Shown here piece by piece: positions 7,463-49,060 of a DNA stretch of 64,000 nucleotides (the stretch's first letter is position 1; the number at the start of each line of letters is the position of its first letter). The stretch is from contig CM000154.2 in assembly GCA_000004695.1 (NCBI GenBank), positions 2,720,001 through 2,784,000 on the forward strand, read 5' to 3'. The notes under the pieces are model-generated. The model had not been told where the DNA came from. It worked only from the letters and a program-made list of their open reading frames with translations, and did no database searches. Made by a program: the position numbers and the translations under genes. Source of the stretch: Dictyostelium discoideum. Taxonomy: Eukaryota.

Positions 7463-7491
7463 AATTTTTTAGATGGAAGAATTTGATCGTA

Positions 7492-10066: not shown

Positions 10067-10166
10067 NNNNNNNNNNNNNNNNNNNNNNNNNNNNNNNNNN
10101 NNNNNNNNNNNNNNNNNNNNNNNNNNNNNNNNNNNNNNNNNNNNNNNNNNNNNNNNNNNNNNNNNN
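10067..10166. other. Assembly gap (100 N)
   Basis: Literal run of n. Flanking sequences are repeats, so the true size and content are unknown. Confidence 0.99.
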
Positions 10167-21294: not shown

Positions 21295-23346
21295 TTGGTG
21301 ACTTCACTATTGGCATATAACCCGGAAACACTATCGTATGGTAAATCTGTTGAAGTTGGGTTTGAAATACATTTTAAAGACGATTTAAATGGTATTGCTG
21401 ATATTAATTTTACTATAATCTCAGACAAAGATAAAAATGGTTTTGATTTTAATTGTAAGCCACCAGAAATAAAAAATACTCATACATGTTCTCCAAGATG
21501 GAATGTAACCATACCACAGACATTTTACATATCCCAAATGTCCACAATAGATAGCAAGGGTTATTCAACTGAATATCCTAATATTAATAAAGTAAACCCA
21601 ATGATGGAAATTGTAGAAACTGATTATAATAAACTGATAGTTACAAGTAGTGGTGAAATGGACACAGATATCCCAACGTTGGTTCATTTCATTTCTAATA
21701 TATCATATATAAATAATCAATCAGATAGATCGATTTTAGTTAACTTTACTATTGAAGATACCAATAGTGGTGTTTCAATTAAATATCAACCAACAATTTA
21801 TACAATCCCAGATACTTTGAATATTCTTTCATTTCCATGCAAACACGAAGAGGGTTTGATCAACAACACCAAATACCGCCAGGTAAATTTTTACTGCGAG
21901 TTAATGTTACCATATTTATATGGCTATCCAAACGGTTTCTTATTTCAAATTCATGGTGTTTATGATAATCATTTTAATTCTGCAGGTTTTTCTTATGAAA
22001 ATAGCCAAAGATTTGGTTTTTTCATAAATGTTACAGTTGGTGATGATATACCATTCATTGAATCATTTAAAACTGATGAATCATATATAACCTCAAAAGG
22101 TTTTAAATTTGGAATTTCACCTAGTGTAATATATAACTCCAACTTCACACAAGAACTATTAATATTTTCTCCTTCCCCTTTTTTAAATAACAGTTTTATT
22201 CAATTTAAACCAAATTTAACCCAAAACATTATTGGAGAAACTATTTTGATCTACATTAATACCTCGGAAGGAAAATCCAACACTATTTCAATTGAATTGC
22301 CATGTAAAGGAGAGCCATTATGTGGTGGTCAGTCTCAAGGAATTTGCACCCTAATGGGGTGTAGATGTAAACCTGAATATACCGGGACTGATTGCTCATC
22401 AAATATTATTATTATAAATCCAAATATTAACTTAACCGTTTGGTTGTCCAATGGTTTGGTTAAGTTAATATTTGGATTTATAATAATAATATTTGGACAA
22501 TTACCATACACTCACCATCAATCTTTGATTTCTGTTCATTCTTTAAGAGAAGTTGATTTCAATGGTAAATTGGTTAATGAATATATATTTAATAATTGGA
22601 GTTATTATGGTTCAAATAATAGTTTCTCATATATAACAGATGTCAATAATAAAAATGTACCTGATAATAATGTAAAGGTTGAGGTTTTAATTAGACATGA
22701 TAAAGATGGCGGTTTAGTAGAATTTGCCGGCAAAAATGTTCCAATTTTGCTGGGAGCTGTTAAGTATTATTTTTCTCTTTCTAAGTATATATTTAAATCT
22801 CAGTTAAATACATTACATTTGGTAATGCATGCTGCTGTAGAAACTTCACAAAAAGAAAATGTGTGCATGGGTAGTGAGTTTGGAATTGATGGTTTGGAAC
22901 AAGAATCTCAATACTTTAAAGTTCAAATCAATGGTTTTAGTCTATATGGACAATTTATGACAAGAGCAATAATAGATGGTAAATTTATATCAATCAGAAA
23001 CCTACAGGTTAATAGTTCAGATTTTAAAAAATCTTTAAACACCAACACACATTCTCAAATTTATTTTGCAATTGAAATTCCTAATTATGAAATAAGGGCT
23101 GAATTAGATCCAAACTTTAGTGTCCTCTTGGAAAATACCAATAAACCAAATTCTCAAAATTTTGTTTGTGTTGGTGGTAAATCAGGAGGTTTGACATCTC
23201 TGCAAATGATTGGAATTATAATATCTTGTGTGGGAATGTTTGTGGTTGTTATTGTAATAATTTGTTATATTTCATATAAAAAATCAACTTTTCTTCGTGT
23301 TAAAGCAAGATTTGTATCCTTGAAATTAAAAAGTCTCAGAGACTAA
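21295..23346 (+). CDS. Type-I membrane protein with EGF-like module, TM helix and short basic tail (683 aa in the track ORF); 5' end unresolved
   Basis: Track ORF starting at an alternative TTG. The frame is open back to 21109 with no in-frame ATG, so a signal peptide or first exon is missing or unrecognised. It contains the EGF-like CKGEPLCGGQSQGICTLMGCRCKPEYTGTDC and a C-terminal TM segment LQMIGIIISCVGMFVVVIVIICYI followed by KKSTFLRVKARF. Many N-glycosylation sequons are present. Confidence 0.5.
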   Translation: MVTSLLAYNPETLSYGKSVEVGFEIHFKDDLNGIADINFTIISDKDKNGFDFNCKPPEIKNTHTCSPRWNVTIPQTFYISQMSTIDSKGYSTEYPNINKVNPMMEIVETDYNKLIVTSSGEMDTDIPTLVHFISNISYINNQSDRSILVNFTIEDTNSGVSIKYQPTIYTIPDTLNILSFPCKHEEGLINNTKYRQVNFYCELMLPYLYGYPNGFLFQIHGVYDNHFNSAGFSYENSQRFGFFINVTVGDDIPFIESFKTDESYITSKGFKFGISPSVIYNSNFTQELLIFSPSPFLNNSFIQFKPNLTQNIIGETILIYINTSEGKSNTISIELPCKGEPLCGGQSQGICTLMGCRCKPEYTGTDCSSNIIIINPNINLTVWLSNGLVKLIFGFIIIIFGQLPYTHHQSLISVHSLREVDFNGKLVNEYIFNNWSYYGSNNSFSYITDVNNKNVPDNNVKVEVLIRHDKDGGLVEFAGKNVPILLGAVKYYFSLSKYIFKSQLNTLHLVMHAAVETSQKENVCMGSEFGIDGLEQESQYFKVQINGFSLYGQFMTRAIIDGKFISIRNLQVNSSDFKKSLNTNTHSQIYFAIEIPNYEIRAELDPNFSVLLENTNKPNSQNFVCVGGKSGGLTSLQMIGIIISCVGMFVVVIVIICYISYKKSTFLRVKARFVSLKLKSLRD

Positions 23347-23898
23347 TATTTCACTAGAAAAAAATTATTAAATAAATCATTTTATGAGAAATTTTATAAT
23401 CGAAATCTCTTTTATTTCGAAAAATGAAATTATTTGATAGAAATTGCATATTTTTTTTAAAGTAAAATTTGAACACAAATTTATTTATTCTTTCATTTCT
23501 TAAAATAATTTTTTCTAATAATTCTTTAATTTTAAAGAAATGATAGAATTATTTGTCCCATACCAAAATTATATATGATAAAATTAATAAAAACAAAAAA
23601 AGAGAAAGTTTTGAAAATGAAATTTTATTAAATGTTTACATTGGACCTATCAGTGAATAATTGAATTAATTCTAAACAAAAAAAAAGTTTTTTTTGAAAA
23701 AGATTGAGTTATCCCGGAGAAGTTCATTTTTTAAACAAAAACAAATTATTTCAAAAAAAGTTTTTTTTTTTTTAAAAAATTCCAAAATCTTTTAGCCAAA
23801 GTTTTTAAAATCTTTTTTTTTTTTTTTTTTTTTTCAAAATTTCAATTTAAAAAAAATAAAGGAAAAAACACACCAAAATTAAATAAGTAAGAATAAAA

Positions 23899-26002
23899 AT
23901 GAAATATTTATTAGTATATTTACACATATTACTATTTTGTTTATTAAAGATCAATAGCCAAAAGTATTGCACTTATAGTGGTGTTGGAGAAGATTATAAT
24001 ATCAAATTTGATGTCTTACAAACAAAGTATGTAATTTTTTTTTTTTTTCTTTCTCTTCTTTTTTTTTTTTTTTTTTTTTAAAAAAAAAACCTAATTATTT
24101 TTTCTTAAACGTTCAAACAGTGGTGGTATTGGTTTTCTATACTCATATTTAAGTGTTATTTTTACAACTTGTAATTATACTATTCCTTGTGGTAGTAATA
24201 GTAATAATGTATTGTGTGGATCATATCATTCAACTGTTCCACGCAAGTATCTTTCATTGGGATTTGTTAATGGCAGTACACATAGTTATAGCAAAGACGG
24301 ACTAATGATAACATATATATCACAGGATACAACAAATGATAATGATTGCAAAAGATATACAACAAATGTGATTTTTCAATGTAGACCAGATGGTGATGTA
24401 TCCGATTCATTAGATGTTGGCATCGACAATATACTTATTGATTCATGTATTGTTGAATTCACACTCTATTTACGTACAGTGTGTCAAACATGTCCAAACT
24501 GTTTAAAAACACATCAAACATCATGTAATGTGAAAAGTGGTTGGTGTACTTGTGATGGTAATACAAAAGGTTTAAATTGTGATCAATTAAATGCAAATAT
24601 ATCATCGGTATTAACACCAACAATTAGTGGTGGTGATGTTATAATGTCTGGTGATTTTTCAAATATTTATAATATTAGCTCAAGTATTACAATTTCAATT
24701 GGTACTTCAATTTGTAATAGTGTTATTTTCTCAAGTAATAAATCACAAATCAAATGTACGATAGGTGCAGGTGAAGGTGATCAACAAATTAAATTATCAG
24801 ATGGAAATGGTGCAACATTAATATATGATGGATTTTATTATAGAGCTCCTTGTTCAGTCGAATGTTCACCATTTGGTAAATGTAATGATCACGTTGGTAA
24901 TTGTATTTGTAATGATGTTGCAATTGGTACAGATTGTAAAACTTTAAATTTACAATTAGATTCAGTAACACCAACATTTGTAACTGGTGGTCAAGTTTAT
25001 TTAAATGGTAATTTCCTAAATGTCAAAGATCTTAGTCTAACTATTAAAATCGGTGATATAGAATGTTCAGATGTTAAATTCAACGATACTAATTTCAAAG
25101 TTTTGCAATGTATAATTCGAAAAGGTGAAGGTATTAAAGATATTATAATATCATCAGGTTTGCTATCATTTTCAAAAGCAAAAGCATTCGAATATCAATA
25201 CTACAAATGTCCACTCAATTGTTCAACACCAAATGGTACTTGTGATAATAATACTGGTAATTGTACATGCCATAATGAACATTTTGGTAATTCTTGTGAA
25301 TTTACTCGATGTCCACTCGATTGTTCGACACCAAATGGTACTTGTGATAATAATACTGGTAATTGTACATGCCATAATGAACATTTTGGTAATGGTTGTG
25401 AATTCACTCAATGCCCACTCTATTGTTCAACACCAAATGGTACTTGTGATATTAATAGTGGTATTTGTACATGTGATAATGAACATATTGGTAATGGTTG
25501 CGAAATTAAATTTATTGAATGTAAACATAAATGTTCAACCAAACATGGAATATGTGATAATGATAGTGGTAATTGTAAATGTGATACTCAAACAAAAGGA
25601 TTAACGTGTGAAGAATCAAGATTATTAATTGAATCATTAGACTCAATCAATTCAAAAGGTGGTACAATAAATATAATTGGTTATTTTGGAAATACAACAT
25701 CATTATTAACAATTAAAATTGGTGAATCACAATGTAAAAATATCAAAGTATTCAATGAAACAACATTAAAATGTGATATTGGTGAAGGTAAAGGTATTCA
25801 TAATATTACAATCATTGATGATGACCTTTCGTTCACAGCAATCAATAAGTTCCAATATCTCGATGAAAAAACAAAAATCTCAAAAATATCGAGAGGTGCA
25901 ATTGCTGGTATTGTTGTTGGTTGTGTTGTTGCTGTTTCATTAATTGGTTCTATTGCTTTTTATTATCATCACAAAAATAAAAAGGTTAATCTTTTCTTCT
26001 AA
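23899..26002 (+). CDS. Type-I membrane protein: signal peptide, MRH-like domain, IPT/TIG-like and three tandem EGF-like repeats, TM; join(23899..24026,24121..26002)
   Basis: Exon 1 is MKYLLVYLHILLFCLLKINSQ/KYCTYSGVGEDYNIKFDVLQT (track ORF 23899..). A phase-2 donor AA|GTATGT sits at 24027 and the acceptor CAAACAG at 24120. Exon 2 is the track ORF 24212..26002 extended 5'. The MRH-like Cys pattern is C..Y..G...F / CGS...LCGSY / CKRY..NVIFQC / CIVEFTLYLRTVCQTC. Three nearly identical 40-aa EGF-like repeats (CPLNCSTPNGTCDNNTGNCTCHNEHFGNSCEF) are encoded by a 120-bp tandem DNA repeat at 25201..25560. The TM is AIAGIVVGCVVAVSLIGSIAFYY. Confidence 0.65.
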
Positions 26003-26204
26003 AAACTAAAATAAAATTTAACCATTATGGTTTTTTATTACAATAATTAAAATTTCCCAATTATTTTTGATATTTTTCTTTTTTTTTTTTTCTTCCAACT
26101 ATGATTTATTTTATATAATTTTGTGTATTTTTGTGTGCTTTATTTATCTATACTAAATTCATATTAAAAATTAATAAATTTAAATTGTTATCAATTTTTT
26201 TCGG

Positions 26205-26262
26205 CCACATAAATATCAAATTAATTCGATTCGATTAGTTGAATTTAAAGTGATTGGCCAAG
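26205..26262 (+). repeat. 57-bp conserved element, copy 2
   Basis: cggccacataaatatcaaattaattcgattcgattagttgaatttaaagtgattggcc. See copy 1 at 21188..21246. Confidence 0.6.
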
Positions 26263-26762
26263 CTTTTTTTTTTTTTTTTTTTTTAAATTATTTTTTTAAA
26301 TTATTTTTTATTTTTTTTTTTTTTTTCATTTTTATTTTTTTCATTTTTTTTTTTATTCTGGCACATCACCTAACAAAAACAAAAGGTGAAATTTGTTTAT
26401 CGTGCAATAACTCTGTTTTGAAAAAATAAAAATAAAAATAAAAATAAAAATAAAAATAAAAATAAAAATAAAAATAAAAAGGATTTAAAAATTAAAAAAA
26501 AAAAAATAAAAAATAAATAAAAAATAAAAATAAAAATAAAAATAAAAAGGATTTAAAAATTAAAAAAAAAAAAAATAAAAAAAAAATAAAAAATAAAAAT
26601 AAAAATCAAAAAAATTAAAATTGAGGTGTTTTTTTGAGAAAATACCAACAATTCAATACCAATGTCTAAGACAGCCATAAATATTTTTTCCCTATTCCAC
26701 CAACTATAAAAAAAAACAAATAAAATAGTTTTATTAGTAAAATTTAAATTTTACATTTTTAG

Positions 26763-27556
26763 ATGTTATCAGAGTTTTTTAATAATATTACCTCATTTTT
26801 TGTTAATATTTTTTCATTATTTGAGGGAAAAAGAAATATAAGAATATTAATGATAGGTTTAGATGGTGCAGGTAAAAATCAATTCAATAGTTTTGATATT
26901 AGAAAAAATAATAATTTAATAAATAATAACAATTCATTTTTTAATTAAAAATTATTTTTTTTAGGCAAATCAACACTTTTATATAAATTAAAATTTGGTG
27001 ATGTTATTAGAACAATCCCAACAATTGGTTTTAATGTTGAAATAAGTATGTATCAATTTATAGGAATAAGATTGTATTAAATAATATATAATATATTATT
27101 TAAATATACATATAAAACAACCAATTTTATTAACATTAATTTACATTTTTTTTTTTTTTTCTATTTCCAAAAGTTGAATATAAAAATTTATCAATGAATG
27201 TATGGGATATAGGAGGTCAAAATAATATTAGAGCGTTATGGCGTCAATATGATCAAAGAACAGATGTATTCATCTTTGTAGTTGATTCTACTGACCGTGA
27301 AAGATTTGATGAAGTTAAACAAGAAATCAAAAATATAATTGAACAAAACAAAAATGAATCAAGTAATGCTTCATTATTAATCTTTGCAAACAAACAAGAT
27401 ATGCTCAATCCAATTACACCTGCAGAATTAGTTAATTCATTGGATTTAAATTCATTAACAAATAAAAAATGGCATGTTCAACCTTGTAGTGCAGTAAGAG
27501 GAGATGGTATTTACGAAGGTTTTGACTGGATAGTATCCAACTCTAGTGGAAAGTGA
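26763..27556 (+). CDS. ARF-family small GTPase (ARF/ARL-like, no Gly2 myristoylation site); join(26763..26871,26965..27045,27174..27556), 190 aa
   Basis: Two phase-1 introns (G|GTAAAAAT...TTTTAG|GC and A|GTATGT...CAAAAG|TT) rebuild the P-loop [76 protein letters not shown]...LLIFANKQD...[23 protein letters not shown]. These align with ARF1 switch I/II, the NKxD motif and the C-terminal SAT-GDGLYEGLDWL. Confidence 0.75.
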
Positions 27557-27774
27557 TTGCATTTATAAAGGTTTTGATTGAAGGGGTAGTATTTAACAAT
27601 AGATTATTAAATTAATTTCATTATCAAATAAAAAAATAAATATAAAACTATATAAAATGAATTGGGGGCAAAAGTAAAACAAAAACACATCTCTCCTAGA
27701 TAGATTGATGATGTTTTTTAATTCTCAATTTAATTTTAATAATTTTAAAATTTTTTATTTTTCATTAATATTAA

Positions 27775-27996
27775 GGGTTTGGGAGAGGTAGCACTCTTTT
27801 TATAAACTCTGAAATTGTGCAATACAGAGCGAATGCTATTTTAGATGTAATAAAGGCATGCCGATATCATAACATCTAAACCTCGAATAAAAAATTATTT
27901 TAAATTCGAATGCTTTCACTTAGAAAGCAAGAACGATTTTAAACGTTCTAGAACAGATACTACACTTGATTAAAGCTATTACGCTTCAAGAAGAAT
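27775..27996 (-). ncRNA. U2 spliceosomal snRNA gene, divergent in stem I (about 220 nt)
   Basis: The minus-strand transcript AUUCUUCUUGAAGCGUAAUAGCUUUA-AUCAAGUGUAGUAUCUGUUCU-AGAACGUUUAAAAUCGUUCU... contains a 21/21 match to the universally conserved U2 branch-point-interaction region GAUCAAGUGUAGUAUCUGUUCU. A perfect stem-loop IIa equivalent (AGAACG-UUUAAAA-UCGUUCU) follows, then an Sm-like AAUUUUUUA and a 3' end ...CUCUCCCAAACCC. The block is a GC-richer island in the 740-bp gap between convergent genes. A DUSE-like TCCCAAAA lies about 85 nt upstream (plus-strand 28081..28088) and a TATAAAGG about 50 nt upstream. Confidence 0.6.
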
Positions 27997-28151
27997 TGTG
28001 ACTTATGCTTTATTAAGGCAAAAAGTGATTTGATTTGTTTTTTTATTCTTCCTTTATATTATTATTAATAAAATTATAATTTTTGGGAAAAATATTTTTA
28101 ATTCTTTTGAATTAATTACAACAATTAAAAAAACATTGTTGAAATTCCATT

Positions 28152-28212
<61 letters not shown>

Positions 28213-28298
28213 AAATCAACACACATTGTTAAATTCTTTTTTAAATATCAAAAATAAACTTTTTTTTTTTTTTTTTTTATTTAATTTATTTAATTTAT

Positions 28299-30977
28299 TT
28301 ATTTATTTACTAACTTAAGAAGTTCATCAAATGTTTTAAACATATTAGTGACAAGTTCACTTCTTTCTTTAATATTAAATATTGATAATTCAAGTTTTTC
28401 AGCATCTCTAGATTTTTGTAAATCTTTAATTGCATTAACAGAATCAAAACCTGATGACATATATGAATAAGCTTTTGAAACATTAAGACAATCGACTGGA
28501 GCTAAATCTACATATCTTTGGAAATATTTTCTAATATCTTTATAATTTTCTGGCATATTGCCAATCATGGTAGAAGGCTCATCCCTTGGATTTGAAGTTT
28601 TAATATGTAGGGCATAACCTAAAAGATAGAAAACATATTCATTTACCATTGGTTTTGAAATTGTAGTATTATCGAAAATGTATTTCAAATCTTTGATAGC
28701 ATTTTCAAAATCACCAGCATAAATAAAACATTTACCACGAAGTGCCAAGAAATCGAAATCATATTTGAATTGTGGTTGATTTTTAAAGAGTTCCTTAAAT
28801 TTCAATATTAAATTGTTTCTTAATAAATCACTTTTTACATCAAGTGATTCAACAGCAAATAAAATTAAATTTGATTTTTTATCAGATTTATCCTTTGATA
28901 TATTTTTTTGACAATGTTCTTTAATTTTATCTTTTTGAATTGGTTTTAATTGAGCTACATAAAATTCTGATATTACCAATTCATACAATGGATCTAATGA
29001 TTCCTCAAGGTTACCTTGGTCAAACAATTTTTCGAAATCATTTTTTAATTCGATGGCTTTGATTAATTTCATTGCCATTTTTGAACCTTTATATGAATCC
29101 TCAACTAAACGAGGAAGATTTGCATTAAAGTCAATTTTAGATCGATTCAGAAAGGTAGATATCCTCACCTTGATTAGCAAAGTAGCTTTTGTTTGATATT
29201 TCTTTAACATTGGAATCATTACAAAAATCATCTGCCAATTTGAGATCATTCGATTTAAATGATTTATCCTGTTCCAAGATATGACCATATCTGAATACGA
29301 GTCTAGAGTAATTATCTTTTGCTTCAGCTCCCATGTCTTCACTTATTTCAGCAACTATTTTACATAGTTTAGCACTTCTAACAATGTCTCTAACTTTACC
29401 AAATATTAAATCTTGGAATTGAAGTTCATCTTGAAATAGAGTTTTACTATATAAATGCATTTATACCTTCTTCTGAATGTAATTGATTTCACAAGATTTT
29501 TCAAAAAAGTATAAACCTTTCTCAATATCCATATCGAAACCATCCTTACCGAAATAGAATCTATCTGCTAAATAGAAATTAAAGAATTGAATTTGATAAA
29601 ATGGTCCATTCTCTTCGAATTCGTGTAGATCTTTCTCTAAAGAACCATCCCTCATTCTTTTAACCTCATCTTTTGTAAAGAATGGTTTCAATGAGTAATG
29701 ATAATTTTTATTAATTTTCACTCCGTAACCTTTATCCTGAGCTTCTGATAAAATTCCTAAACCAAATGGTAGCCCAAGTGATGCAGAGTCAAATAAGAAT
29801 GGTATTGACTTTGCATAGTCTTTATCTCGGTGGAAGTTGTATTGAACCCTTTTCTAAAACACGTATAAGAAGGTCTTCATAAGGTTTATTATACTTTTTA
29901 GCGATTTGAATAATTTCATCCACCCTTTTTGCTGGGACACCTTTTGTTGGGAATTTCATATCAACTTTTTTAATATAATTATTCAATTCTTTAACTATAT
30001 CCCTTTTACCAGTATTTGCATCATAACATCTTTCTGATAGCTTCTTTTCAGTCTCTTTCTTTGTATATTGTACATCCTTGGCATCCTTATCAAATGATAA
30101 TGCAATATCATAGAAAGTTAATGCAATATCATATTGTCCGATATATTCATACGTTTGACCAATACGAAACCATCCTTTATACCACAATGGTCTTAACCCA
30201 ACTGAATCAATTGCATCATCTCTTGAATCTAATATATATTTAGATTGCGTATATCTTTGTGAAGCAAATTTATAGTTATTTACAATCCATTTATAATGTT
30301 CTAATCTTGAAATTGATTTATTACTTTTTATTATTGATATAGTTGTAGGTGAAATTTGTTCACAAGAAGCCTCCTATGCTAATTCATAAGATTCCACTGC
30401 TTCTGGATAATCTTTTTTAGTAAAATATTGGTTTCCAATATCTTTAAATTTATTAACTTTTTTTTCAACTTCTAATGTTGAATCAACTTGTTTATCTTTA
30501 AATAATTCTTTTAAATCATCGTCATCCCTATCAAATTCTAATTTACAAATTAAATTATTTTCATCTAAAACCGAAATTGATTTTTTAATATTATTAAAAT
30601 ATGTTTTAAATTCTTCATTTGATAAATATAATCTATATGATTCTTTATTTTAATAACTTTTTTTTTTAAAAAAATTAATATATATTAATATCTTTTTATT
30701 ATTTTTATTATTTATTATAAATTATTTTTTTATATTTACATTTTATATAATTTAATCTAATTTTTAATAATTCTTTATTTTCAATATCAAGTTTTGATTT
30801 ATTTAATTTAGTATATGGAGCTTGTAATACTTTTGTTAATAAAATAATATCCCAATTTGCTAATGAACCTAAATCAACTAATTTTTTTTGTTCTAATGGT
30901 AATTCTTTGTAGATTGTTATTTGATAAATATTTTCCAAATGGAGGTATAGAACTCCATTTTTGACCATTTGATTCAA
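28299..30977 (-). pseudogene. TPR/Sel1-like repeat protein gene carrying two in-frame stop codons and two frameshifts (probable pseudogene)
   Basis: Five consecutive minus-strand track ORFs (30708..30977, 29822..30187, 29461..29721, 29137..29460, 28299..29342) form one homologous reading unit. (i) TAG at 30374..30376 sits in-frame inside a TPR helix (...KDYPEAVESYELA*EASCEQ...), with an open frame for 100 codons on either side. (ii) A frame change follows within about 30 nt of 29822-29850; the -1 frame continues as Sel1-like ...DYAKSIPFLFDSASLGLPFGLGILSEAQDKGYGVKINKNYHY... (iii) An in-frame TAA sits at 29461..29463 between ...EKSCEINYIQKKV and MHLYSKTLFQDE... (iv) A frame change lies between 29137 and 29342. 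It is bridged only by an atypically GC-rich 64-nt GTGAGG..TTTAG candidate intron (29105..29168). Sel1/TPR signatures include LADRFYFGKDGFDMDIEKGLYFFEKSCE and WYKGWFRIGQTYEYIGQYDIALTFYDIALSFD. Confidence 0.5.
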
Positions 30978-31270
30978 TTAACCATCTTGATTTAAATAAT
31001 TCTATTAAAATTGGTTTACAAGAATTTAAAAATAAATTATAAATTTTAAAAAAATTAATTCTTTATCTTTTAATGTCATTTTATTATAAATAATAATAAT
31101 AACGAATTTTTGGACAATGAAAATGCATAAAAAAAAAAAAAATAAAAAAATAAAAAAATAAAAAAAAAAAAATAAAAATAAAATAAAAAATAAATAAAAA
31201 ATAAATAAAAAATAAATAAAAAATAAATTTTGAGAAAATACATGTTGCTAACACAATATGCAAAAATCAA

Positions 31271-32007
31271 GCAGCCTTATATTCAAATGGATAAATTTAT
31301 GATTTAAGACCGGAATTATCCAGCAGGAGTAACGTATAAGTATTCTAGCGACAATCTAAATTCTCAAAGATTCAAATTCTCCAAAGGTATCAGTTGTATA
31401 AACATCTTGTTTAAGTAAAAATCAAACTGTTTTATTCAATCAATCAGTATCATGCTCATTAAACAAATATATGACATGCTCTTTAGATTATCATCATCTT
31501 CCTTGTTTTCATCGTCATCCTCGTCTGTTAACGGTGGCAATAATTCATCAACTACACCAACAATATCAATATCATTAAACTCTTCCACATCAGATTCATC
31601 AACATCGGCCTCTTCAATGTCATCATCATCCTCTTCAATAGAACCTGATGAATATGTAATCACTAGTAAATTTGATATTATCAACAATAGATTAACACTT
31701 GAAAATCCATATAACAAAACAATCAGTTGTATTGGTGACCGAAATGCATACTCTATATTCAAACTTTAGTTGCACAATTGTTCCATTCAATCAAACAGAA
31801 ATTATCATAGAATGTTATAATGAAAACTCTTCAATTTTAACATTCACAGAATCTTTTGAATGTAATATTGGTTATTCAATGAAATACTCATTAAATATTC
31901 CACAAACTACTTCAATTGATGATGATATTAATAGTAGCAAAAGTAGTATCAATAACTCAAGTCACACCAATAGTGAATCTCTCCAAATCCTAAATAAAAT
32001 TAATTAA
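31271..32007 (+). pseudogene. Rearranged partial duplicate of the giant IPT/MRH gene (exon junction region plus last 0.67 kb of the CDS), frame-disrupted
   Basis: 31271..31310 matches 37561..37612 (end of the MRH exon ...LNGDLYDLRP). 31303..31323 (ggaattatccagcaggagtaa) matches 37724..37744 at the start of the last exon. 31330..32007 is about 90% identical to 47255..47925 (the final 0.67 kb of the 3380-aa ORF, including its stop region). The 9.5 kb in between is absent. The two track ORFs 31452..31769 and 31699..32007 are in different frames, so indels disrupt the copy. Confidence 0.6.
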
Positions 32008-32167
32008 TTAATTTTCATAACAATTATTTTTAGAACTTATTAAGTTTTATTTTTGTTAGATATTGAAATTATAATAGATTTATTTTTTTGTTTTTAAGTA
32101 GATAGAAGTTTTTTTTTAAATGAGTTAAAGAGTACAAAGGAACATTGTAACATAGGTTGAACTTTTT

Positions 32168-35046
32168 TTACAAATTAACTTTATAGTTGTATATTTGATC
32201 ACGCATTGCACCTTTTGATATTTTATTGGCATCTGCAAGTATTTTATTCCAAGATTCTCCGACAATATCAAATACTCTGCAATTAAATATGTCTCCATTC
32301 TTTCCCTTTAAAATTATATTTTTGGTTAATAAAAATTAATAATAATTAATAATTATAATAATTATAAAAATAATAATAATAAAAATAATAAAAGTTGATA
32401 CAAACTAAATCAGTTAATAAAAATCCTTCACGAAATTGTTGGCAATATTTGTAAAGGTCTAAACAAGGACTATAAGGACTACGGTTATATATATGATGAA
32501 CTGTAACCACTGTTTGATCTATAATTATATCTTTTCCACAAAAACTAATAACATCTTGATAAGTTTTAAATTGTTGTGTCAACATATTATTATTATTATT
32601 AAAAAAATAAACTTTGTTATTTGAGTTATAAATATTTCCAAGAAGCATTCTTAGAGCAATATCCATTTCAAACATATTGTAACCATCTTCTTGACCTAAA
32701 GGATCTATAAGTTTTTCTATACCTTCTAAAGCAAATTTAGTTATTTGTTGATCATCATCATCTCCATTTGCTTCATAGAAATATGAAATTATCTTATTTT
32801 TTTCTGTACAAAGGTACTTAGTTTGAAAATTGTTACAATTATCTTCATCTTTACAAAAAACAATATGTGGATAATAAAAATTTGACTCCCAACAAAATTG
32901 AATTGGGGCATCCAAAGTATAAAGATTGTTTTTTCTTATAACCATTTCTTGAAATGTTTTAAAATCTATTTTACCACCACCATTAATCTCTACATTCAAA
33001 TCGATTTTGTCTGATGGTGGTGGAAAACTCATTGATGATCCAGTTAGTTGATAATGTTGTTGAATTTTACTTATTCTTTCCATATCATCACTATTTTCTT
33101 TAATTACCAACCTTGAAATAAAATCATTAATACCTTCTTTAACTTTTGAGTTATAAAATGTCCTTTCTCCACTTGAACTTATATAGTAATACGAATAAAC
33201 TTTTTTTGAAAAAAATTTACTAAGAGTTGGGCTTTTGAAACAATGTACTGATCCTCCTCTATGAGCCTATTTTTGAGTGTTATGAAAAATCAATTTTATT
33301 AAAACTAGATTTTAGAAATCCATAATTTAAATATAAATTTTTACTTACCTGTTTTTCCATAAAATTATTATCACCAACACAAAACCATATATAATCATAT
33401 TGATTAGGTTGGGTTGGTACAACTTCATCAGGAAAATCTCGTTTAAATTGAATAACTGAAAAAGCTTGTTTTGAATGATCCTTTTTTCTTGTAATAATTT
33501 TATTATTAGGAGCATAACCAGTTATATCTTCAACTTGATATACTTTACGTTCAAGATTTGTAACTTTTCCTGTTTCAATGTCATTATAATGTTGAGTTTG
33601 TAAATAAAAGTTTCCTAATAGTGAAATTTGTTGACCACCAAAATCCATCTTTAAGGTTGAAATGTATGTCCAAATGTTTATTAAATTTTTATAACTCAAT
33701 TTACTGGGATCCATATATCTTCTTACACCATTAATATAGTTTTTCCCTAATTGGTTATCTTTGTTATAAAATTGTTTTTGATAAAAATATAATTTTTCTG
33801 AATATTGGTTATAAAGTGTTTCTAAATGTTGCTTTTTACTGTATTCCGAAAAATAATATGCCTGGTTTAAAAAGTTAATTTTTTTTTTTTTTTAATAAAT
33901 AAGGTAATTTAAAGATTTTGATTAGATTAATGAAAATACACATACATGCTTTGCCAAAACATACAATGGGAATTTATCATTTTGGTCCAATATTTTAACA
34001 TCTTTAACAATTCCGGCTGTTACTTGAGATTCTCGAATATTAATATTTTCGTAATGAATATTTCTCTTTTGAAAATCATTTGTATCAGGTATTCTCATAA
34101 AGCTAACTCTTGGAAATTTGGCAGGATCTAAATCATCTAATATATTTGTTAACTCTAATGATGAGAGTCCCCAATTGACCGCCAAACCATTAACGTAACC
34201 AATAACTGAATTTGTTAATACCAAATGTCTATAGATACCAACTTCAATCCCTGTTTTTGAAATCGGATAGCAATATGCATACTGTGCTTGTTGTAATTTT
34301 GGGTTCTTATCTTTTGGTATTAAATTCAAAAATTAATATTAATAATAAAGGAATGAAATTGGTTAAATGTATGAAATAATGAACCATTACCTCTTAAATT
34401 TTTATCTTTATGATTAAAAACTTCTAAACCAGGATTAAATCCACCTGTTTGTGGCTTTTTTGCAAATTTTCCTTTCTCCATAGTTTCATCATTTCTACTT
34501 GTTCTAAACAAAGGAAATGCTGTAAAACTATGCATCACATGTATACCACCATCTTTGTTCCTACAAGTTCACAATGTGTTTAAAATAATAAATCAATTTT
34601 TAAATTAAGAAATTAATTTTCCTTTTTTTTTTTTTTTTTTTTTTAAAAAATTTAAATAAAATTAAAAATTAAAATATTAATATTTACCAAATAAAAAATC
34701 CTTTTGAATGTCCACCTATTGGATCTTTATCTCTTGTTTCATCTGGATGATCATTGTAGGTAACATAATTATAATCTGGGTTTTCCATTTGGTTGAATGT
34801 TAATAAAAACGCTGATTCACTATCATATCTTAATGAATATTCAATTCCTATTTTTTCAGTTATGGTATCAGAGAAACTATTCCAATAATAAATTCCACCT
34901 TCTTCAGGTAACTGGTAAATGTACCATTTTCTTATTTTATCGTTCAATCCAATATCTTTTCCTCCTTGTAAACACATGGGCTGACAATAAAATAATTGAA
35001 TATTAAATATAATTAAAATTAAAAAAATTAAAATAATCTTTTTCAT
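32168..35046 (-). CDS. Secreted multi-exon protein, possible Ntn-hydrolase/phospholipase-B-like enzyme; complement(join(32168..32305,32406..33266,33348..33861,33946..34310,34391..34560,34688..35046))
   Basis: Exon 1 (track ORF 34684..35046) starts with a signal peptide MKKIILIFLILIIFNIQLFYCQP and ends TG|GTAAAT. Five further GT..AG introns join the track ORFs 34326.., 33922.., 33280.. and 32346.. in frame. The final 45-aa exon GKNGDIFNCRVFDIVGESWNKILADANKISKGAMRDQIYNYKVNL* replaces the implausible read-through tail ...INFYYFYYYYFYNYYNY. The functional call rests only on overall size, secretion and motifs such as AHRGGSVHCF, and it is weak. Exon 4 is 1 nt off a multiple of 3 (caveat at 33301). 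Confidence 0.45.
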
Positions 35047-35099
35047 TTTATTTGTTGTAATTATTTTTTTTATTCTTTTTAAAGAAATTAAATTATTTT

Positions 35100-35119
35100 A
35101 AAAATTAAAATAATTATAA

Positions 35120-35178
<59 letters not shown>

Positions 35179-35695: not shown

Positions 35696-36379
35696 ATGAA
35701 TAAAAAATTTATTTTATTATTTATATTTTTATTATTTTCACTGATAAAAAGTGAAAATATCATAATTATAAATAATGAAACTTTTTTAAATCAAACAAAT
35801 TTAATTTTAAATTCATATTATTCACTAAATGATAATATTTTCAAAACTTCAATAATAAATAATGAATTAATATTCCAAGATTCAAGTATAACATTTTTAA
35901 ATCAACATGAAAAAACATCAATTTACAAAGAAGATTTATTAATTAAAAATGGAGAATATCAATTAAATGGTAAATCAACAATTCCAATAATTTTTATAAG
36001 TTTACAACAAATTTTAAATTCAATAAATCCAGTATTGGAATTATCAAATATTGAACCAATAACCAAAATTACAGCAATTGTAAATTCTTATGATGGTAAT
36101 GTGATTGTAGAAGGTTATGAAAGAATTCCAATTTTTTATAATGAATTACAAAATAAAGTTGAATTTTATCAATCAATTTCAGATATTATTGCTCATATGA
36201 TTATTGATTCAATTAAACCAAACCTTGTTTCAAAAAATAAAGATAGTTTATTTCAAAATTATGATTTAACAATTAACGATTGGGAAGAATCAATATCATT
36301 TTTAAAAGGTTTTAAGAATTTTTTTTCAATTTTAATTAAAAAGGTAATTAATCATTTAAAAAAAAAAAAAAAAAACTAA
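35696..36379 (+). CDS. Secreted 227-aa protein with signal peptide; either an independent gene or the signal-peptide exon of the downstream giant gene (junction unresolved)
   Basis: Track ORF MNKKFILLFIFLLFSLIKS|ENIIIINNETF... A canonical donor AAG|GTAATTAAT at 36344 is phase 0. A clean 87-nt mini-exon candidate (36454..36540, acceptor CCTATAG, donor AAAG|GTACGT, open only in phase 0) follows. The next exon of the giant gene at 36690 requires a phase-2 donor. No consistent splice path was found, so it is kept separate. Confidence 0.45.
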   Translation: MNKKFILLFIFLLFSLIKSENIIIINNETFLNQTNLILNSYYSLNDNIFKTSIINNELIFQDSSITFLNQHEKTSIYKEDLLIKNGEYQLNGKSTIPIIFISLQQILNSINPVLELSNIEPITKITAIVNSYDGNVIVEGYERIPIFYNELQNKVEFYQSISDIIAHMIIDSIKPNLVSKNKDSLFQNYDLTINDWEESISFLKGFKNFFSILIKKVINHLKKKKKN

Positions 36380-36689
36380 AATGATTATGGATAAATTATT
36401 AATTAATTTTTTTTTTTTTTTTTTTTCTATTTTGTTATTTCCCATACCTATAGATTGCATTCCCAAAATTATCAGATTCTGTAACTGAATCAATCTATAA
36501 TGATAAATCAAATTCATACATAAACATTAAACATATAAAGTACGTATAAAAATCTGATTTTTAATTTACAAAAAAAAAATATCTTTTCTCAACATAATAA
36601 CTTTTTTTTTCATTTTCGATTTTTCTATTTTTATTTTTTATTATTTTAATTTTTTTTTTTTTTTTTAATTTTTTTTATTTTTTTAATAG

Positions 36690-39600
36690 GCCAAAAAATA
36701 ATCCCACATTCTCTTCATTATCAATTTCATCAACATTGTTGGATTTATATCAAGGAAATGTTGATAAACAAAATAAACCAGTTTTCTTTGAAAAGATAAC
36801 ATTGTTGTCAATGATTACAAGTTTAAAAAATAAACAAGTTATCGATATTGAATCATTTTCAAAAGTATTATTAGAAAATAATAATTTAGAAATTGGTAAA
36901 TCAATTGAAAATATATTATTTTTAAATAAAATAATTTCAACTTGTTCACTAGTTAATTGTTCAACTAATACATCATCCTCTTCAAGATCAATAAAAGCAA
37001 TTTTAAATCCATCAACATTTAACAATACAATTTCACAATGTATTTATTATGATAAAACTAGAAATCAATATTATGATTTAACTCCATTAATGTTGTATGT
37101 ATTTATATATTTTTAAAATAGTATCAATAATAATAGGAATATTGAATAATATAATATTAATATTTTTATTATTAAATTATATATTATATTATTCAATATT
37201 ATTAGACCATCAAATCAATTTTATAATGTAACTAAAGCATCAGTTACAGGAGGTGCAGTTTTTTTTAATTTTTGTACGAAAATTACAAAATGTGATTCAA
37301 TTGCATCAACAACCAAACAATCAGTGGCTTGTCAATCAACCATTGAACTAGCTTCTCTTAATCTTGCACATACTACAACTTTTCCAACCACTGATGGTTT
37401 AACACTTGCATATACAGCACCTGCTACAGGTACTTGCTCACCTTCAAGAAAATTGTCATATGTTTTCGTATGTAATCTTGCTCAAGAAATGTTAGCTGAT
37501 GTCACTGTAACTGCCAATGCATGTACTTTTACTCTTACCATTCAAACAAAATATGCATGCAAGAATCAAGCAGTCTTTTATTTAAATGGAGATCTTTATG
37601 ATTTAAGACCATTACAATTGTAAGTTTACACCCCTTTTTTTTTATGATCATAATAAATTATTAATAAAATCTTTATATTATTAGAACATATCCAAAACAA
37701 TTTCAAGTTAGATTAACACCATGGAATTATCCAGCAGGAGTAATTAGATATGTTTATTTCAATATTTTTGCAAAATCTAAAATGTGTGAAAATACAACAA
37801 CTGGATCAAATCATGCATGCTATATCGATAGTACAAATAGTGGAGTGATTGTTCCAATGAAGGAGCCAGTCTATACAATTGAAACTCAAGATTTAATTAA
37901 AATTCAATATTTTAGTACAGCCCCTTATTTTCCAAGTTGCCCAAATCCTGTATTGGAAATTAATATCAAATGTAATCCAACAGTTGATTATCAATTCCCA
38001 AGTTCAGTTTCTTATGAAGATATGTGTAGTTATCCAATTCTTATTATTGAATCAAGATATGCATGTCCAACAATGCGTTTCTTAAATGGTAAACAATTTT
38101 ATAGTTTAGAATCCTTACAAAAACAATCAACTAATCCATATCAAGTAGCATTTGGATCCAATTATAAATTACTTTTTAATTTTGGTGGTATTGTTGATAC
38201 ATGTGTACAAGCTATGCCAGCAACAAATCCAACAAAAAGAATTCAAGCTTGTCAAATTCATAATACCAATCAAACTGATGTTCGTATAATTGGTGTTGTT
38301 AATTTAGGTCCATTCGTTAAATTCTCTTACAATTCAATGACATTAGAGTATTTTACAGAAACATTAACAAGTGAATGTCCAACCAATGGCAATCGTAGAT
38401 CTATTAGATTAGTATTAACCTGTAATCCAACCACAGATTATTTAGTAACTAGTGTAGTCGAAAGTCCATTATGTGTCTTCCAAGTAAATATAGGCTCAAA
38501 GTATGCTTGTGATTCATTGATATTTTTCAATGGGTATAGTTTTACAGATTTAACACCATTGAAATCCCTCCAAAGATACACTGATATCAGTGGTGGTAAC
38601 ACTCTTACTCGTTTATATTATTCAATTGGTGAAGCTCATCCAAGTTGTTATACACATGCAACTGCCAATTCATCATTAATTTATCAATCATGTACTTTTC
38701 CAAACTCAACAGTTTCACAAATTGGTGGATTAAAGAATAGTTCTTATTCATTTATAAATGGTGGTAAGAGTTTACAAATTACCTATTCATCAGATGTTAG
38801 TAGTAAAGTTAAATGTGGCGTTTCCTCAACCCAAACTTTTAATGCCCTTACATTTCAATGTGATCCAGTAAATGAATTTGTTCAATCCCTATATACTATT
38901 CCAAGTGTTTGCTATTATGAGGTTAAAATTAATTCATCATATGCATGTTCATTTCCAAAACTTGAAGATTCACCCAAAGCTATAACATCAATCTCTCAAC
39001 CAAACGGTTTTGCCGGTGATCAGTTAACCATCAATGGTGTAGCGCTCCATCAAACAGATAAGGTTATTTTCTCTACACTATTATTTGATGGATCAGTTCA
39101 TAATGAAGTTGCAACAATTATTTCAAAAACATCAAATCAAATCATAGTTCAAATACCATATGGTTATAGAGATTCTGTAATTTATCTCATATCTGCACTT
39201 GGAGTAAAAAGTAATAGTGTTCCATTTTATTTTTCTCCAAATGTTGATCTTTTAATTCCAGAATTTGAAATAAATAAAATAAATAAAATTTATTTAATTG
39301 GTAATGGTTTAGGTTCATTATTTTCAGCAGTACCAAGTTATTGGGTAAATGTATATGCCACAAGAAATTTCACAGGAAGATTCAAGAGTGAATTAACTTG
39401 TGTTTTTGATAGATATTGTTCTACAGGTGGATCCCAATTTCAACCTATACCTTTACCAAATGGTCAACCAGGTATAACATGTATTGAAAGTGAATATTAT
39501 TTAAATAATACCTCTCTTAGATCAAATTTAACAGATGTAGTGGTTTGTCTTGAAATTCCTTATAATATTGGTACTGGTACGATTGATGCTATTGTTTTCG

Positions 39601-42600
39601 GTCCTGGTAGTCTTTCTCAAGTGTTCTCTTCATCCTATAGGTATAAAGCCCCAACTATTATACCACCAAGTATTGATAGTAATGTTAAATTAGTGGTTCA
39701 AAATGAAATAATTACAATCAAAGGTGCAGGTTTTCCAAATTACTCCTATAATAAATATAGTTCAAATCTTGCATGGGAGAAAAGCTATGTTTCATTTGGA
39801 CCTTCTTATCAATGTTTAAATGTTGATTGGAGAAAAACAAATGAAATCTATTGTAAAATACCACCTGGAATTGGATCAAATCTTTTATTATCAGTTACTG
39901 TTGGTGATATCACCTCTAAAGCCTCTCTAAATACAACAAATAATTATTATATTTCTTATAATACTCCAACTTTAACACCAAATATTTTATTTTCTGGTGA
40001 ACCAAGTACTCCATCTAAAATCACAATCACTGGTAATTATTTTATTCCAATTGAATTAGTGGTTGCTGCAACTAGTACTCCAAGCATAATCAATTCATTG
40101 GAAAATTATATAATGATTGGTAATGGTAGAAAATGTGAAAATGTTCAATGGATTGATATAAATACAGTTATTTGTACTCCACCAATTTCAACAAGTTCAA
40201 ATCTCGATCAGTTATATCCAATCTCTATAACAGTTGGTGGTCAAACATCAATTGGTGGTAATGTAAATTTTAGATATTACAATGCTTCTTGTTTTTTCCC
40301 TTGTAATTCAAAACCAACCGTAAATACTCCTTCAAATTTTGTATCAACTTTATATGAAAATGGAATTTGTTCAAATCAATTAGATAATAATAATATTCCA
40401 AATGGTAAATCAATTCAACAATTAGAACAATTTTTCATTGATAATTGGACACCAAATACAATTAACAATGATTGGAAATCTGGTCAATTTTATAAAACAT
40501 TCTTTAGAGAACCAAAACAAACCATTTCAAGCTTATCTCAATTTATTGTACAACAATCAAATGATTCAATTTGTGCCTACGATAATTTATCAGTTACTCC
40601 ATATATATCAGTTCAAGATTTAATTACAATTAGCAATGATTTAAATAATTTAGTTGAAAATTCATTTAAAACTTTAGAAATCGAAAATGGATTCCAAATT
40701 TCCTATTATAATGTAACAAGCAATTCAAATGGTAATGGTCTTGCAATTGTAAAAAGCAATGATAAATTATGTAGTTTCGTTGAAAGTTCCTATGATGTTC
40801 CAAGTTTAAATCAAGCATTACAATTATGTTTTGAATCTTGCTATTTCTATTTTTGTAATGATACTACTCAAAATTATCAAATATTATTAGCTAATTCAAA
40901 TGATTTAAAAAGTATTCTATTAAAATCTGGTATTTGTTCAAATGATATCGAACAATATAATTTCCAACTATTAGAATCCATACTATCGAATCAATTATTT
41001 TATAATGAATTTGAAAGTGATTGGTCAAGAGGTCCACTTTTAAATTTACTTTCAAATACATCAAAGGCAATCAATCAAATATCACCATTTATCAAATTAA
41101 ATTTTCCATTAACATATAGTTGTATCTATGATACACCATCAGCAAGTAAAATTACAATTTCAAAATTAATAGATATAGTTGATGATTATAGAAGATTAAT
41201 TGTTAATAAAGTTTATAATGAAACTAAGGATTATGGTGGTGGTATTTTGAAATCTTATTTTTTCAAATTAAATAGTGATAGTAATACTAAAGGTCTTGTA
41301 ATAGTTACTCGTGATAATAAGATTTGTAGTATCGTTGATTCTTTATATTCAGATTTTACTTCAGATTCAGTTATTACAACTTGTGATATGATTTACTCTA
41401 TTACATCTGTTCAAGTTATAAACGATTCAGTTAAACCATATAGGGTCAGATTTGAATTACTTGGAAATTTCGTTGGTGATATTAAATTTGGTGATGATCA
41501 AATTTGTAATCTCGTTTCAACAGAATTTACAGGTCTTTATGGATATAGGGAATGTTTATTTGATGATATTAAAAATTCAGCCACATTAACATATCAAGCA
41601 AATGGTATTACCATAGTCGATGATTTTAGATTTAAATTCCCACAACCAATAATTACAAATATTGAATATTCAACCACACCATTAGTAATTGCAAATTCAG
41701 ATATTACAATCACAGGTTTAAATTTATTTAGAGATAATGATGTAGTGAATTTTAAAAACTTAAAAGTAATGATCAATCAACTTGATGTTACATCAACAAT
41801 TAAAGATTCAACAATAAACCCAACAACTGGTTTTTCAACATTTAAAATCAAAGCAATTGGTAGGGGAGAGGCAAACAGAATCATTGTTTATTCAGATGAT
41901 TTTGAAATTCGAACTAATAAATCAATTATGGGTGTAGATTTTTCTCTTATTTATACTTTAGAATCACCAATTTTATCATCATTATCAAGCACAACAGGTC
42001 AACGTGGTGACATGATTAAATTATTTGGTTATTTCCCACAATGTATTCAATGTAATGAAACCATCATTTTATTTGGTGACAATCAAGTTTCTGATTTTAC
42101 AATTATAAGTTCAACAGAAATTCAAGTTATTGTACCATATGGTTTCGATAAAGTACCCATAATAGTAATGATTAATCAAGTTTTCAATCATGATGATAAT
42201 TGGGTTTATTTTTCATATCCACAACCAGAAATTCATCAAATTATAAAGAGTTCAAGCATTGAAACCTCATCAAATAGTCCATTTTGGGTTTTTGGTATTG
42301 GCTTAAATCCACTTCCAACAAATCCAGATTCATTCTTTACAGCTTCTTTACTATCAACTATTTACGATGCTGATAATGATGTAGATGGTGATAATCTTAA
42401 ATTGGAATGTGAATTTTCAGACTTTTGTTATAGAAACAAAGTTTATTATATTGATGGTGGTGATGGCACTGAAAATAATCAAACAATTCCAAGACCAACT
42501 TCTCAAATTGATCCAAATAATTTTGATCCATGTATAGAGTTGAAATCTCAATATTTTGAGAATGTAGAATTTGATACATATGTTTGTTATTTAATTCCTG

Positions 42601-47924: not shown

Positions 47925-48639
47925 TTTTTCTTAAAATGCCAAACCAATCTAACAATTTATAATTAAATAAATCTATTGATAGAAATTTTTTTTATTAATT
48001 ATCTAAAATATTGGTAGATTTATGTCCCAATTAAGTCTACAGCAAAAATTTATTTCTTTGTTAATTATTTTTATTTTCAAAATTCTTTTTATTGGATATT
48101 AACAAATTATTTTACAATCCAAGTATATTTTTTTTTTTTTTTTTTTTTTTTGTATTGATTAATTACAGTTTTTCAAGAAAAGGAAAATAATAAATAATTA
48201 TAATTTTTTTTTTTTTTTAAATATTAATTTATTATATGCTGAATCTTTAAGCAATAATAGTTTTTTTTTTAGTTTATATTTTGTTTTAAAATTTATATTT
48301 ATATGAATTGAATCAACAATTACTCTATTTGGTAGTATTGTGCTTGATAAACAATAATCTTTTATAATTTGGTTTTTAATATTTTTAATTTTTTTGATGT
48401 ATTCGATTTTTTAACAAATTGGGAGGGTATCTTTTGATGATGCTAATTTATAATTTTTAACTTTATTTATATAATCCAAGGTCGCTGATTCATACCATTT
48501 TTAAGAATTATATCATTGTATAATGTTTTGGCTTGGATTTGGTTGTCGTTGTGGAGTTTGTCCTAGGTGTGCAAGTCAATCTATTTACCACTAATTTTTG
48601 CATATCTATATGTGTATTATAATTTACAATTTTAAAAAT

Positions 48640-48712
48640 GCCCAGATAGCTCAGTCGGTAGAGCGCAAGGCTTTTAACCTTGTGGTCGGGGGTTCGAGCC
48701 CCCCTTTGGGCG
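48640..48712 (+). tRNA. tRNA-Lys (anticodon UUU), second identical copy
   Basis: Same 73-nt sequence as 7390..7462. An ex-B-like GAGGGTTCAACTCCC lies 27 bp downstream. Confidence 0.9.
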
Positions 48713-48841
48713 AAATTTTTAAATTAATATCGTTGATCGAGGGTTCAACTCCCAGTTTAATGTAATGCCAATATTGATCATAATAAATAAAGGAACACAC
48801 AATTAATATTATATGAATGCTGTAAAGCGTGAATCAAAACT

Positions 48842-49060
48842 AACTTTATTTTTTTTCATTTTTTTCAGTTTTTATAATTTTCGAGTTTTCGTTATTTTCG
48901 ACCTAGAAGTTTCGAACGAAAACTCTAAAATATATAAAAACTAAATAAATTAATTATTATTTTAATTATTATTGTTTAATTGTTAATCATTATTATTATT
49001 ACTATTATTAATATTATGATTATTAAAAACTTATTAATATTAAACAATGTAATTCATTAC
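48842..49060 (-). mobile_element. TRE3-like retrotransposon 3'-terminal fragment (copy A, inverted)
   Basis: This is the reverse complement of the copies at 7906..8084 and 50383..50536. Its A-rich 3' end (seen here as tttttttcatttttttcagttttt) faces the 3' end of tRNA-Lys 130-137 bp away. It shares the same 5' boundary (..gaattacattgtttaatattaataag) as copy C. Confidence 0.45.

Follow-up and report, generated by a model that had tools for sequence, protein, structure and literature searches.

The closest described counterparts of the locus reported here are non-processed duplicated pseudogenes, which adjoin their parent on the same strand, carry stop codons and frameshifts, shrink by progressive deletion, and are found as orthologues across related lineages in which decay proceeds independently in each. 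The relic that we describe shares all of these features. It differs in lacking the parental intron and flanking noncoding DNA, in having a DNase II gene between copy and parent, and in being unusually fragmented, with four pieces that include a 16-nt inversion. With processed pseudogenes it has in common the loss of the sole intron in the copied range, a 5' truncation, and a nearly complete 3' coding end, but it has no precise exon-exon junction, 3' untranslated region (UTR), poly(A) tract, or target-site duplication, and it is not dispersed. Junctions made by template switching (FoSTeS/MMBIR) offer a further comparison. An inverted, locally templated stub, microhomologies of 2 to 6 nt at two junctions, and collinear segments from a nearby template are shared, whereas one junction of the relic is blunt and its mosaic grew over time, not necessarily in one event. 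In D. discoideum itself, according to PMC3159450, non-LTR elements are active, TRE5-A is specific for its own RNA, and processed pseudogenes are absent.

The window analyzed here is a stretch of 64,000 nt from D. discoideum chromosome 5 with a G+C content of 24%. The parent of the relic is a giant gene on its forward strand (35696 to 47924, stop codon at 47922 to 47924) whose product of ~3900 aa is MRH-like with IPT/TIG domains, carries a predicted signal peptide, and would be secreted or displayed at the surface. Pfam identified at least eight IPT/TIG domains and N-terminal Cys-rich repeats above the cut-off for PRKCSH_1 (MRH-type). These repeats are adjacent to exon 3, and for exon 3 itself Pfam gave just a weak ATG27-like match (E = 0.05). 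The intron that follows exon 3 (37620 to 37684, forward strand) is 65 nt long, bounded by GT...AG, and in phase 2, with the frame continuous across it, and the last exon runs from 37685 to 47924. Among six parents, the length of this intron varies and the flanking exons are conserved. When the C-terminal module of the parent was searched against 1.84 billion representative proteins, a set that does not hold the giant proteins themselves, the only relatives were two gene models predicted on the relic. tRNA genes with repeat remnants lie near the 3' end of the parent. Between the relic and the parent stands a DNase II family gene on the reverse strand (32346 to 35046; PF03265; XP_636236.2).

The same locus was found by protein-identity look-ups in further assemblies, the 3' end of the parent in the L1 lineage being located through its downstream neighbor. 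These assemblies are GCA_054883475.1, an independent, chromosome-level D. discoideum assembly in which the region is present twice (L002 and L003); GCA_054859355.1 (L001, joined to L008) and GCA_054859385.1 (L004), from a lineage about 90 to 96% identical; GCA_054859205.1 (L005) and GCA_054859235.1 (L006), both labeled "D. cf. discoideum"; and GCA_054859145.1 (L007) from D. citrinum. The gene order TPR (reverse), copy (forward), DNase II (reverse), and giant gene (forward) was seen in the first five of these. A boundary of the segmental duplication in GCA_054883475.1, whose copies are spaced by ~175 kb, falls in the interval that holds the DNase II and giant genes.

Comparison of positions 31000 to 32300 with the window by BLASTN showed that the stretch from 31247 to 31981 on the forward strand is composed of pieces of the giant gene, drawn from about 37541 to 37610, 37723 to 37744, and 47247 to 47913. 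On the strand that also carries the parent, the relic stands 5.7 kb upstream of it, an arrangement found in all six D. discoideum-complex assemblies. The three matches bear out the proposal of a first-pass annotation that this is a rearranged duplicate which keeps only the ends of the neighboring giant gene. Segment 1 (31247 to 31311, forward), interrupted by a TAA in frame, is the counterpart of the exon 3 end (coding ...YACKNQAVFYLNGDLYDLRP). Its core, 31258 to 31311, is identical to 37557 to 37610 at 47 of 54 positions (E about 1e-12), and the match probably extends across a 4-nt deletion to 31247, opposite 37541. Segment 2 (31312 to 31333, forward) derives from 37723 to 37744 within the last exon, where the parent codes for NYPAGV. 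All 21 positions of 31312 to 31332 are identical to 37723 to 37743, and the final C is the state found in the L1, L4, L5, and D. citrinum parents (GTAAC). Segment 3 (31347 to 31981, forward) represents the last 0.67 kb of the coding sequence (47247 to 47913), with 601 of 629 ungapped columns identical (95.5%; E = 0) and six indels (20, 10, 3, 3, 3, and 5 nt), several of them frameshifting. The reported match to the end of the coding sequence holds for this 0.67 kb but stops a few codons early; in every lineage, homology ends at about 47913 to 47918, ~10 nt before the stop codon, and the 3' flank of the parent has no counterpart beside the relic. The pieces occupy three different frames, stops and frameshifts are present in all frames, as the first-pass annotation had said of frameshifts, and the parental start and promoter region are absent. 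Segment 2, the inverted stub described below, and segment 3 share one frame (NYPAGV-TYKYS-SDNLNSQRF), for which the chance probability is 1/3.

Segments 1 and 2 meet at gacc|ggaa, where parent positions 37611 to 37722 are missing. The 65-nt intron accounts for part of these 112 nt, the rest being exon sequence, 9 nt before it and 38 nt after it; the loss of the intron and the 38 nt had been recognized earlier, and the additional 9 nt had not. The ends of the deletion read acc|at ... cat|gg, so the deleted stretch begins and finishes with "at" rather than with gt/ag splice sites, and the spliced exon junction ...caatt|aacat... is absent from the relic. Because the intron was lost within a gap that includes 47 nt of exon and whose ends are not splice sites, its absence does not represent intron excision. 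The same deletion has erased the informative exon junction, so the splice-junction criterion neither proves nor excludes a cDNA template. The join is blunt and without microhomology, and a direct repeat nearby, ACCAT, is not cleanly used.

The sequence that follows segment 2 had been described as a 20-nt novel linker, and it proved not to be novel. Read in reverse complement, positions 31333 to 31348 (cgtataagtattctag) give ctagaata(ta)cttatac, with 15 of 16 positions matching and a 2-nt gap; none of 5000 random 16-mers from the window matched as well. The orthologous copies have the forward form at this same position, and its source is parent 44469 to 44486 (tcagaatatacttacac, forward strand), which also begins the piece from 44470 to 44576 that is kept in the L001, L004, and L006 copies. 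From the "ag" at 31347 onward, the bases already align to the parent from 47247 on, leaving a 2-nt "ag" overlap with the stub. The inverted form, also present in L002 and L003, is confined to the window's lineage. An imperfect microhomology of 3 to 7 nt (CTAGATAT / TCAGAATAT) surrounds the 37749|44470 junction, and the microhomology suggested in the first-pass annotation is found, imperfectly, here and not at gacc|ggaa. The L001 stub ctagaatatacttatac does not continue parent 37741 to 37757, as parent 44466 to 44490 matched it far better.

Each lineage has kept its own selection of parental pieces. The window, L002, and L003 retain 37541 to 37610, 37723 to 37744, the inverted 44469 to 44486, and 47247 to 47913, and the window copy lacks 44487 to 47246. 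L001 and L004 retain 37557 to 37610, 37723 to 37749, 44470 to about 44590, 46748 to 47183, and 47623 to 47908. The 5' part is gone from L005, which keeps 46793 to 47182 and 47623 to 47913, while L006 keeps the acc|ggaatt junction, 44473 to 44572, and part of 46751 to 46834, its 3' part having been deleted into the flank. The 5' boundary of segment 1 and the gacc|ggaa join are common to the window, L001, and L004; acc|ggaatt and 37749|44470 occur in L006 as well; and 47184 to 47622 is missing from L001, L004, and L005. The sharing of these features among orthologues shows the 5' boundary, the 112-nt junction, and the 37749|44470 junction to be ancestral by sequence comparison, and the 44590|46748 junction is probably ancestral too. 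By the same reasoning, the loss of 47184 to 47622 in L001, L004, and L005, the 5' loss in L005, and the 3' loss in L006 are shown to be later and independent events, as are a further deletion of ~0.6 kb and the 16-nt inversion in the lineage of the window. Because the lineages keep different pieces over shared junctions, the ends-only shape is the end state of stepwise deletion. The 9.5 kb reported as missing between the pieces is indeed absent, but reconstruction from the orthologues resolves this gap into three or more separate deletions, one of them lineage specific; it is not a property of the original copy. The alternative offered in the first-pass annotation, that DNA deletion made the junctions, is upheld.

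Decay has continued up to the recent past. After position 31399, L003 retains 20 nt (gattaatgaaacaacaaatc) that L002 and the window lack, and because the L003 version has not undergone this deletion, the event must be very recent. In the last 290 nt, independent frameshifts of 5 nt in the window, 1 nt and 39 nt in L004, and 1 nt in L005 leave no conserved open reading frame (ORF). Neither the parental intron nor flanking noncoding DNA was found in any D. discoideum-complex copy, and a tblastn search with the whole parent protein against 28000 to 32300 returned no further relics and no second DNase II gene (DNase II') upstream of the relic. With regard to age, when changes were counted among three taxa in 618 ungapped columns of segment 3, 21 were unique to the copy, 10 to the window parent, and 12 to the L1 parent. 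In the 3' block of six sequences, pairwise distances range from 2 to 6%, the tree is nearly star-like, and a single site groups the copies apart from the parents, as against several private to each sequence. These values are consistent with a duplication not long before the diversification of the D. discoideum complex and a copy that would have evolved about twice as fast as the weakly constrained C terminus of the parent. Gene conversion between copy and parent was considered, as two sites group a copy with the parent of its own lineage, yet the three-taxon counts require none.

D. citrinum provides a second duplication at the same locus. There, a tandem duplication has left DNase II-2 followed by a giant-gene remnant, DNase II-1, and then the giant gene. 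The remnant keeps upstream noncoding DNA and part of an intron (about 36628 to 36937 and 37158 to 37415), and for this reason the event is clearly a DNA-level one. The same two genes are involved as in D. discoideum, and in both cases, the internal giant-gene copy has been cut down to a short remnant. They differ in that the D. citrinum remnant is a 5' part (about 36628 to 37415) with no detectable 3' part, the D. discoideum relic runs from 37541 onward, and the second DNase II gene is kept in D. citrinum. A tblastn search of the region between the D. citrinum DNase II genes gave no match to the parent C terminus, and a copy of the D. discoideum-complex type was not found in D. citrinum. Identity between the two D. 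citrinum DNase II paralogues is 69%, whereas with the D. discoideum protein they share only 47 to 48%. Given these values, the event in D. citrinum probably arose independently and serves as an analogy rather than an intermediate.

Could the apparent duplicate be a product of assembly, or could it be a gene? Collapse or mis-join, which the first-pass annotation had named as the outcome that would undo its finding, gains some credence from the structure of the window, which is a mosaic of two 99.2%-identical paralogous segments that lie ~175 kb apart in GCA_054883475.1. With L1 as the outgroup, its derived alleles are shared with L002 at 31097 to 32580 and with L003 at 33389 to 34941, and AX4 has a second DNase II protein that is flagged "partial." Local chimerism of the AX4 reference is one possibility, recombination between the duplicates another. 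A chimera, however, would alter only which allele is present (20 nt or not) and not the existence or structure of the relic. The L003 relic adjoins the giant gene with the same internal junctions, the structure thus being found identically twice in GCA_054883475.1, and orthologues stand at the locus in four more assemblies from other lineages; these independent assemblies refute an artefact for the relic, and we give that explanation next to no weight. As for a gene, the translation of the relic is exactly that of DDB_G0289405 (XP_636235.1, Q54HJ8), a hypothetical protein of 156 aa from D. discoideum AX4, and a functional, Ser-rich protein derived from the C-terminal module of the giant gene might be proposed. 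The model is annotated in AX4 and in a second assembly, and the last ~290 nt are well conserved among lineages (2 to 6% pairwise differences). This divergence, however, equals that of the weakly constrained parental region, and the copy branch is about twice as long. The model (31476 to 32007, forward) starts exon 1 at an internal ATG at 31476, joins two relic frames through a predicted intron at about 31666 to 31726, and ends exon 2 at 32007. That intron removes ~61 nt that are coding in the parent, and the product runs eight codons out of the parental frame, regaining it only past the 5-nt deletion. Models at the relic in other lineages differ (195 aa or 177 aa) or are absent, the terminal block carries the independent frameshifts and the 39-nt deletion, no Pfam domain was found in DDB_G0289405, and we found no papers on it. 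As the ORF is not conserved in the orthologues, we consider a functional small gene highly implausible, and the AX4 model is, on the features of the locus, most likely an annotation artefact.

The two remaining explanations concern how the copy was made. The first-pass annotation had preferred a processed, internally deleted retrocopy. On that account, spliced giant-gene mRNA would have been reverse transcribed, truncated at the 5' end, and inserted upstream of its parent, and later deletions would have removed the exon junction, the interior, the 3' UTR, and the poly(A) tract. The sole intron of the copied range is missing, copies mediated by LINEs are usually 5'-truncated with a nearly complete 3' coding end, and both active non-LTR elements and, near the 3' end of the parent, tRNA genes with repeat remnants are at hand in D. 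discoideum. A cDNA with a 47-nt deletion also needs as many events as genomic DNA with a 112-nt deletion; both histories being single step, the junction itself does not decide between DNA and RNA. What speaks against the retrocopy lies largely beyond that junction. Although the deletion ends that are not splice sites and the 47 nt of exon lost with the intron already sit poorly with it, homology also stops ~10 nt short of the stop codon in all lineages, and no similarity to the parent 3' UTR was seen downstream of the relic (the local-alignment score of 31 was reached by 64 of 500 shuffles). Beside the relic, there is no poly(A) tract, the longest downstream A run being 4. Target-site duplications are likewise absent, the two flanks having nothing longer in common than a low-complexity 9-mer, TAAATAAAA, in an (AAATA)n tract. 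A local DNA duplication would be expected to leave the copy where it lies, beside the parent and in the same orientation, an analogous DNA-level duplication is present at this locus in D. citrinum, and TRE5-A is reported to act on its own RNA in a genome reported to be free of processed pseudogenes (PMC3159450). An mRNA-derived copy is, on these sequence features, very improbable, as is the related reading in which the relic would be transcribed from the divergent TPR-gene promoter, convergent with DNase II, to yield an RNA acting on the giant gene. A DNA-level origin could also have been a single episode. In this case, the mosaic of 37541 to 37610, 37723 to 37749, and 44470 onward would have been produced at once as repair or replication switched repeatedly from template to template along the gene nearby (in the manner of MMBIR/FoSTeS or by synthesis-dependent break repair), and the later 16-nt inversion with its deletion would be a second event of that kind. 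All three ancestral junctions predate the lineage split despite a nearly star-like copy tree, the segments are collinear and near their template, 37749|44470 lies at an imperfect microhomology, and the lineage-specific junction, with its short, inverted, templated stub and 2-nt "ag" overlap, is typical of template switching. Against this, gacc|ggaa shows no microhomology and does not cleanly use the ACCAT repeat, large deletions followed the split in each lineage, so that ordinary stepwise deletion suffices, and D. citrinum shows that a whole unit can be duplicated in tandem at this locus and then decay. We therefore regard such one-step assembly as unlikely, though it deserves to be kept in mind.

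Taken together, our analysis suggests, with a probability of roughly 0.87, that this stretch is a pseudogene relic, non-processed and DNA-duplicated, of the giant MRH-like/IPT-TIG gene next to it. It has significant homology to a functional parent and bears disabling mutations, it is linked to that parent, and its neutral decay differs in the window, L001/L004, L005, and L006. We propose that a local, DNA-level duplication placed a copy of the giant-gene body into the 3' flank of the DNase II gene, a copy that would have begun in exon 3 or farther upstream and extended to ~10 nt before the stop codon or farther. This would have taken place in the ancestor of the D. discoideum complex, after its split from the sampled D. 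citrinum. The mechanism may have been a tandem duplication of a unit containing DNase II and the giant gene, with a junction at ~47918|31985 and subsequent loss of DNase II' and the 5' part, or a templated insertion during break repair. Since no trace of DNase II' was found, the tandem-unit version requires an additional deletion. Having neither a promoter nor an intact frame, the copy would then have evolved neutrally and shrunk through deletion. The ancestral losses, shown by the comparison of lineages, comprise everything 5' of ~37541, the 112 nt from 37611 to 37722 that took the intron, 6.7 kb from ~37750 to 44469 at an AGA/TAT microhomology, and probably 2.2 kb from ~44590 to 46747. In the lineage of the window, ~0.6 kb more was deleted and the 16-nt stub inverted, producing the ends-only shape, followed by small indels of which the 20-nt one is still polymorphic; the other lineages each lost different pieces. 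The relic is most likely without function.

These findings bear on the annotation of D. discoideum, in which DDB_G0289405 (Q54HJ8) and its counterparts in the new assemblies are to be flagged as pseudogene fragments and not as hypothetical proteins. If the mRNA origin were true after all, the relic would be the first processed pseudogene recognized in D. discoideum, whose genome is reported to have none. The event belongs to a known class and alters no understanding of a pathway. The interval holding the DNase II and giant genes has undergone more than one duplication, as the D. discoideum complex and D. citrinum show, and the six-genome series offers a small, clean case of the fast dismantling of a dead duplicate by deletion in an AT-rich, compact genome, including a micro-inversion at one deletion junction.

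In D. discoideum assembly GCA_054883475.1, the region holding the relic (the pseudogene fragment derived from the giant MRH-like/IPT-TIG gene) and the neighbouring DNase II gene is present in two versions lying ~175 kb apart. These versions, L002 and L003, are located on CM142511.1 at 2.63 and 2.81 Mb, are 99.2% identical to each other, and both correspond to about 22200-35120 of the window. L002 diverges from the window sequence at about 35117-35125, within the A-rich intergenic tract that separates the DNase II gene from the giant gene, and past this breakpoint it runs into other genes, one with a 529-aa product and the other a Peptidase_M3 gene. A second DNase II protein, XP_002649109.1, is also present in AX4 and is marked 'partial'. 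Copy number also varies among the window, L002 and L003 for the internal tandem repeat (unit of about 102 nt) found at 25207-25586 in the upstream EGF/TIG gene.

When the related lineage L1 is used as an outgroup, window positions 31097-34941 are a mosaic of the two duplicates. Derived alleles are shared with L002 across 31097-32580, the 20-nt deletion among them, and with L003 across 33389-34941. The switch from L002-like to L003-like sequence falls within the DNase II gene. The mosaic reflects either a chimeric or collapsed stretch of the reference or an exchange between the duplicates, by recombination or gene conversion.

The DNase II family gene itself (32346-35046, reverse strand) is evolving very fast. 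Its proteins are just 76% identical between lineages whose giant-gene DNA is about 96% identical, and identity is 68-75% with the counterparts from 'D. cf. discoideum' and 47-48% with those from D. citrinum. The D. citrinum gene is present as a tandem duplicate, and the two copies share a block of near identity at residues about 190-300, a pattern that suggests gene conversion.

Gene calls for the giant proteins (about 3900-4030 aa) are present in six assemblies. The giant proteins were absent from the results of both protein libraries, where the C-terminal query returned only the two gene models of the relic. When a very long protein draws no match in these libraries, that should not be taken to mean that it has no homologues. 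The giant gene also has an internal tandem repeat at 45994-46427, in its Ser/Thr/Gly-rich portion, with a unit of about 207 nt and 89% identity.

Two tRNA-Lys(UUU) genes, at 7389-7463 and 48639-48713, are both trailed by related repeats (7905-8142, 48772-49056 and 48832-48997/50382-50546), among which is an inverted 166-nt pair with 98% identity immediately downstream of the giant gene. They are probably what is left of retroelements that target tRNA genes. The assembly has a gap at 10067-10166, represented by 100 N. Further downstream, a local direct duplication with copies about 4 kb apart is made up of one pair of segments that is 86% identical (58740-59487 and 62824-63565) and a second that is 72% identical (59792-60172 and 63589-63972).
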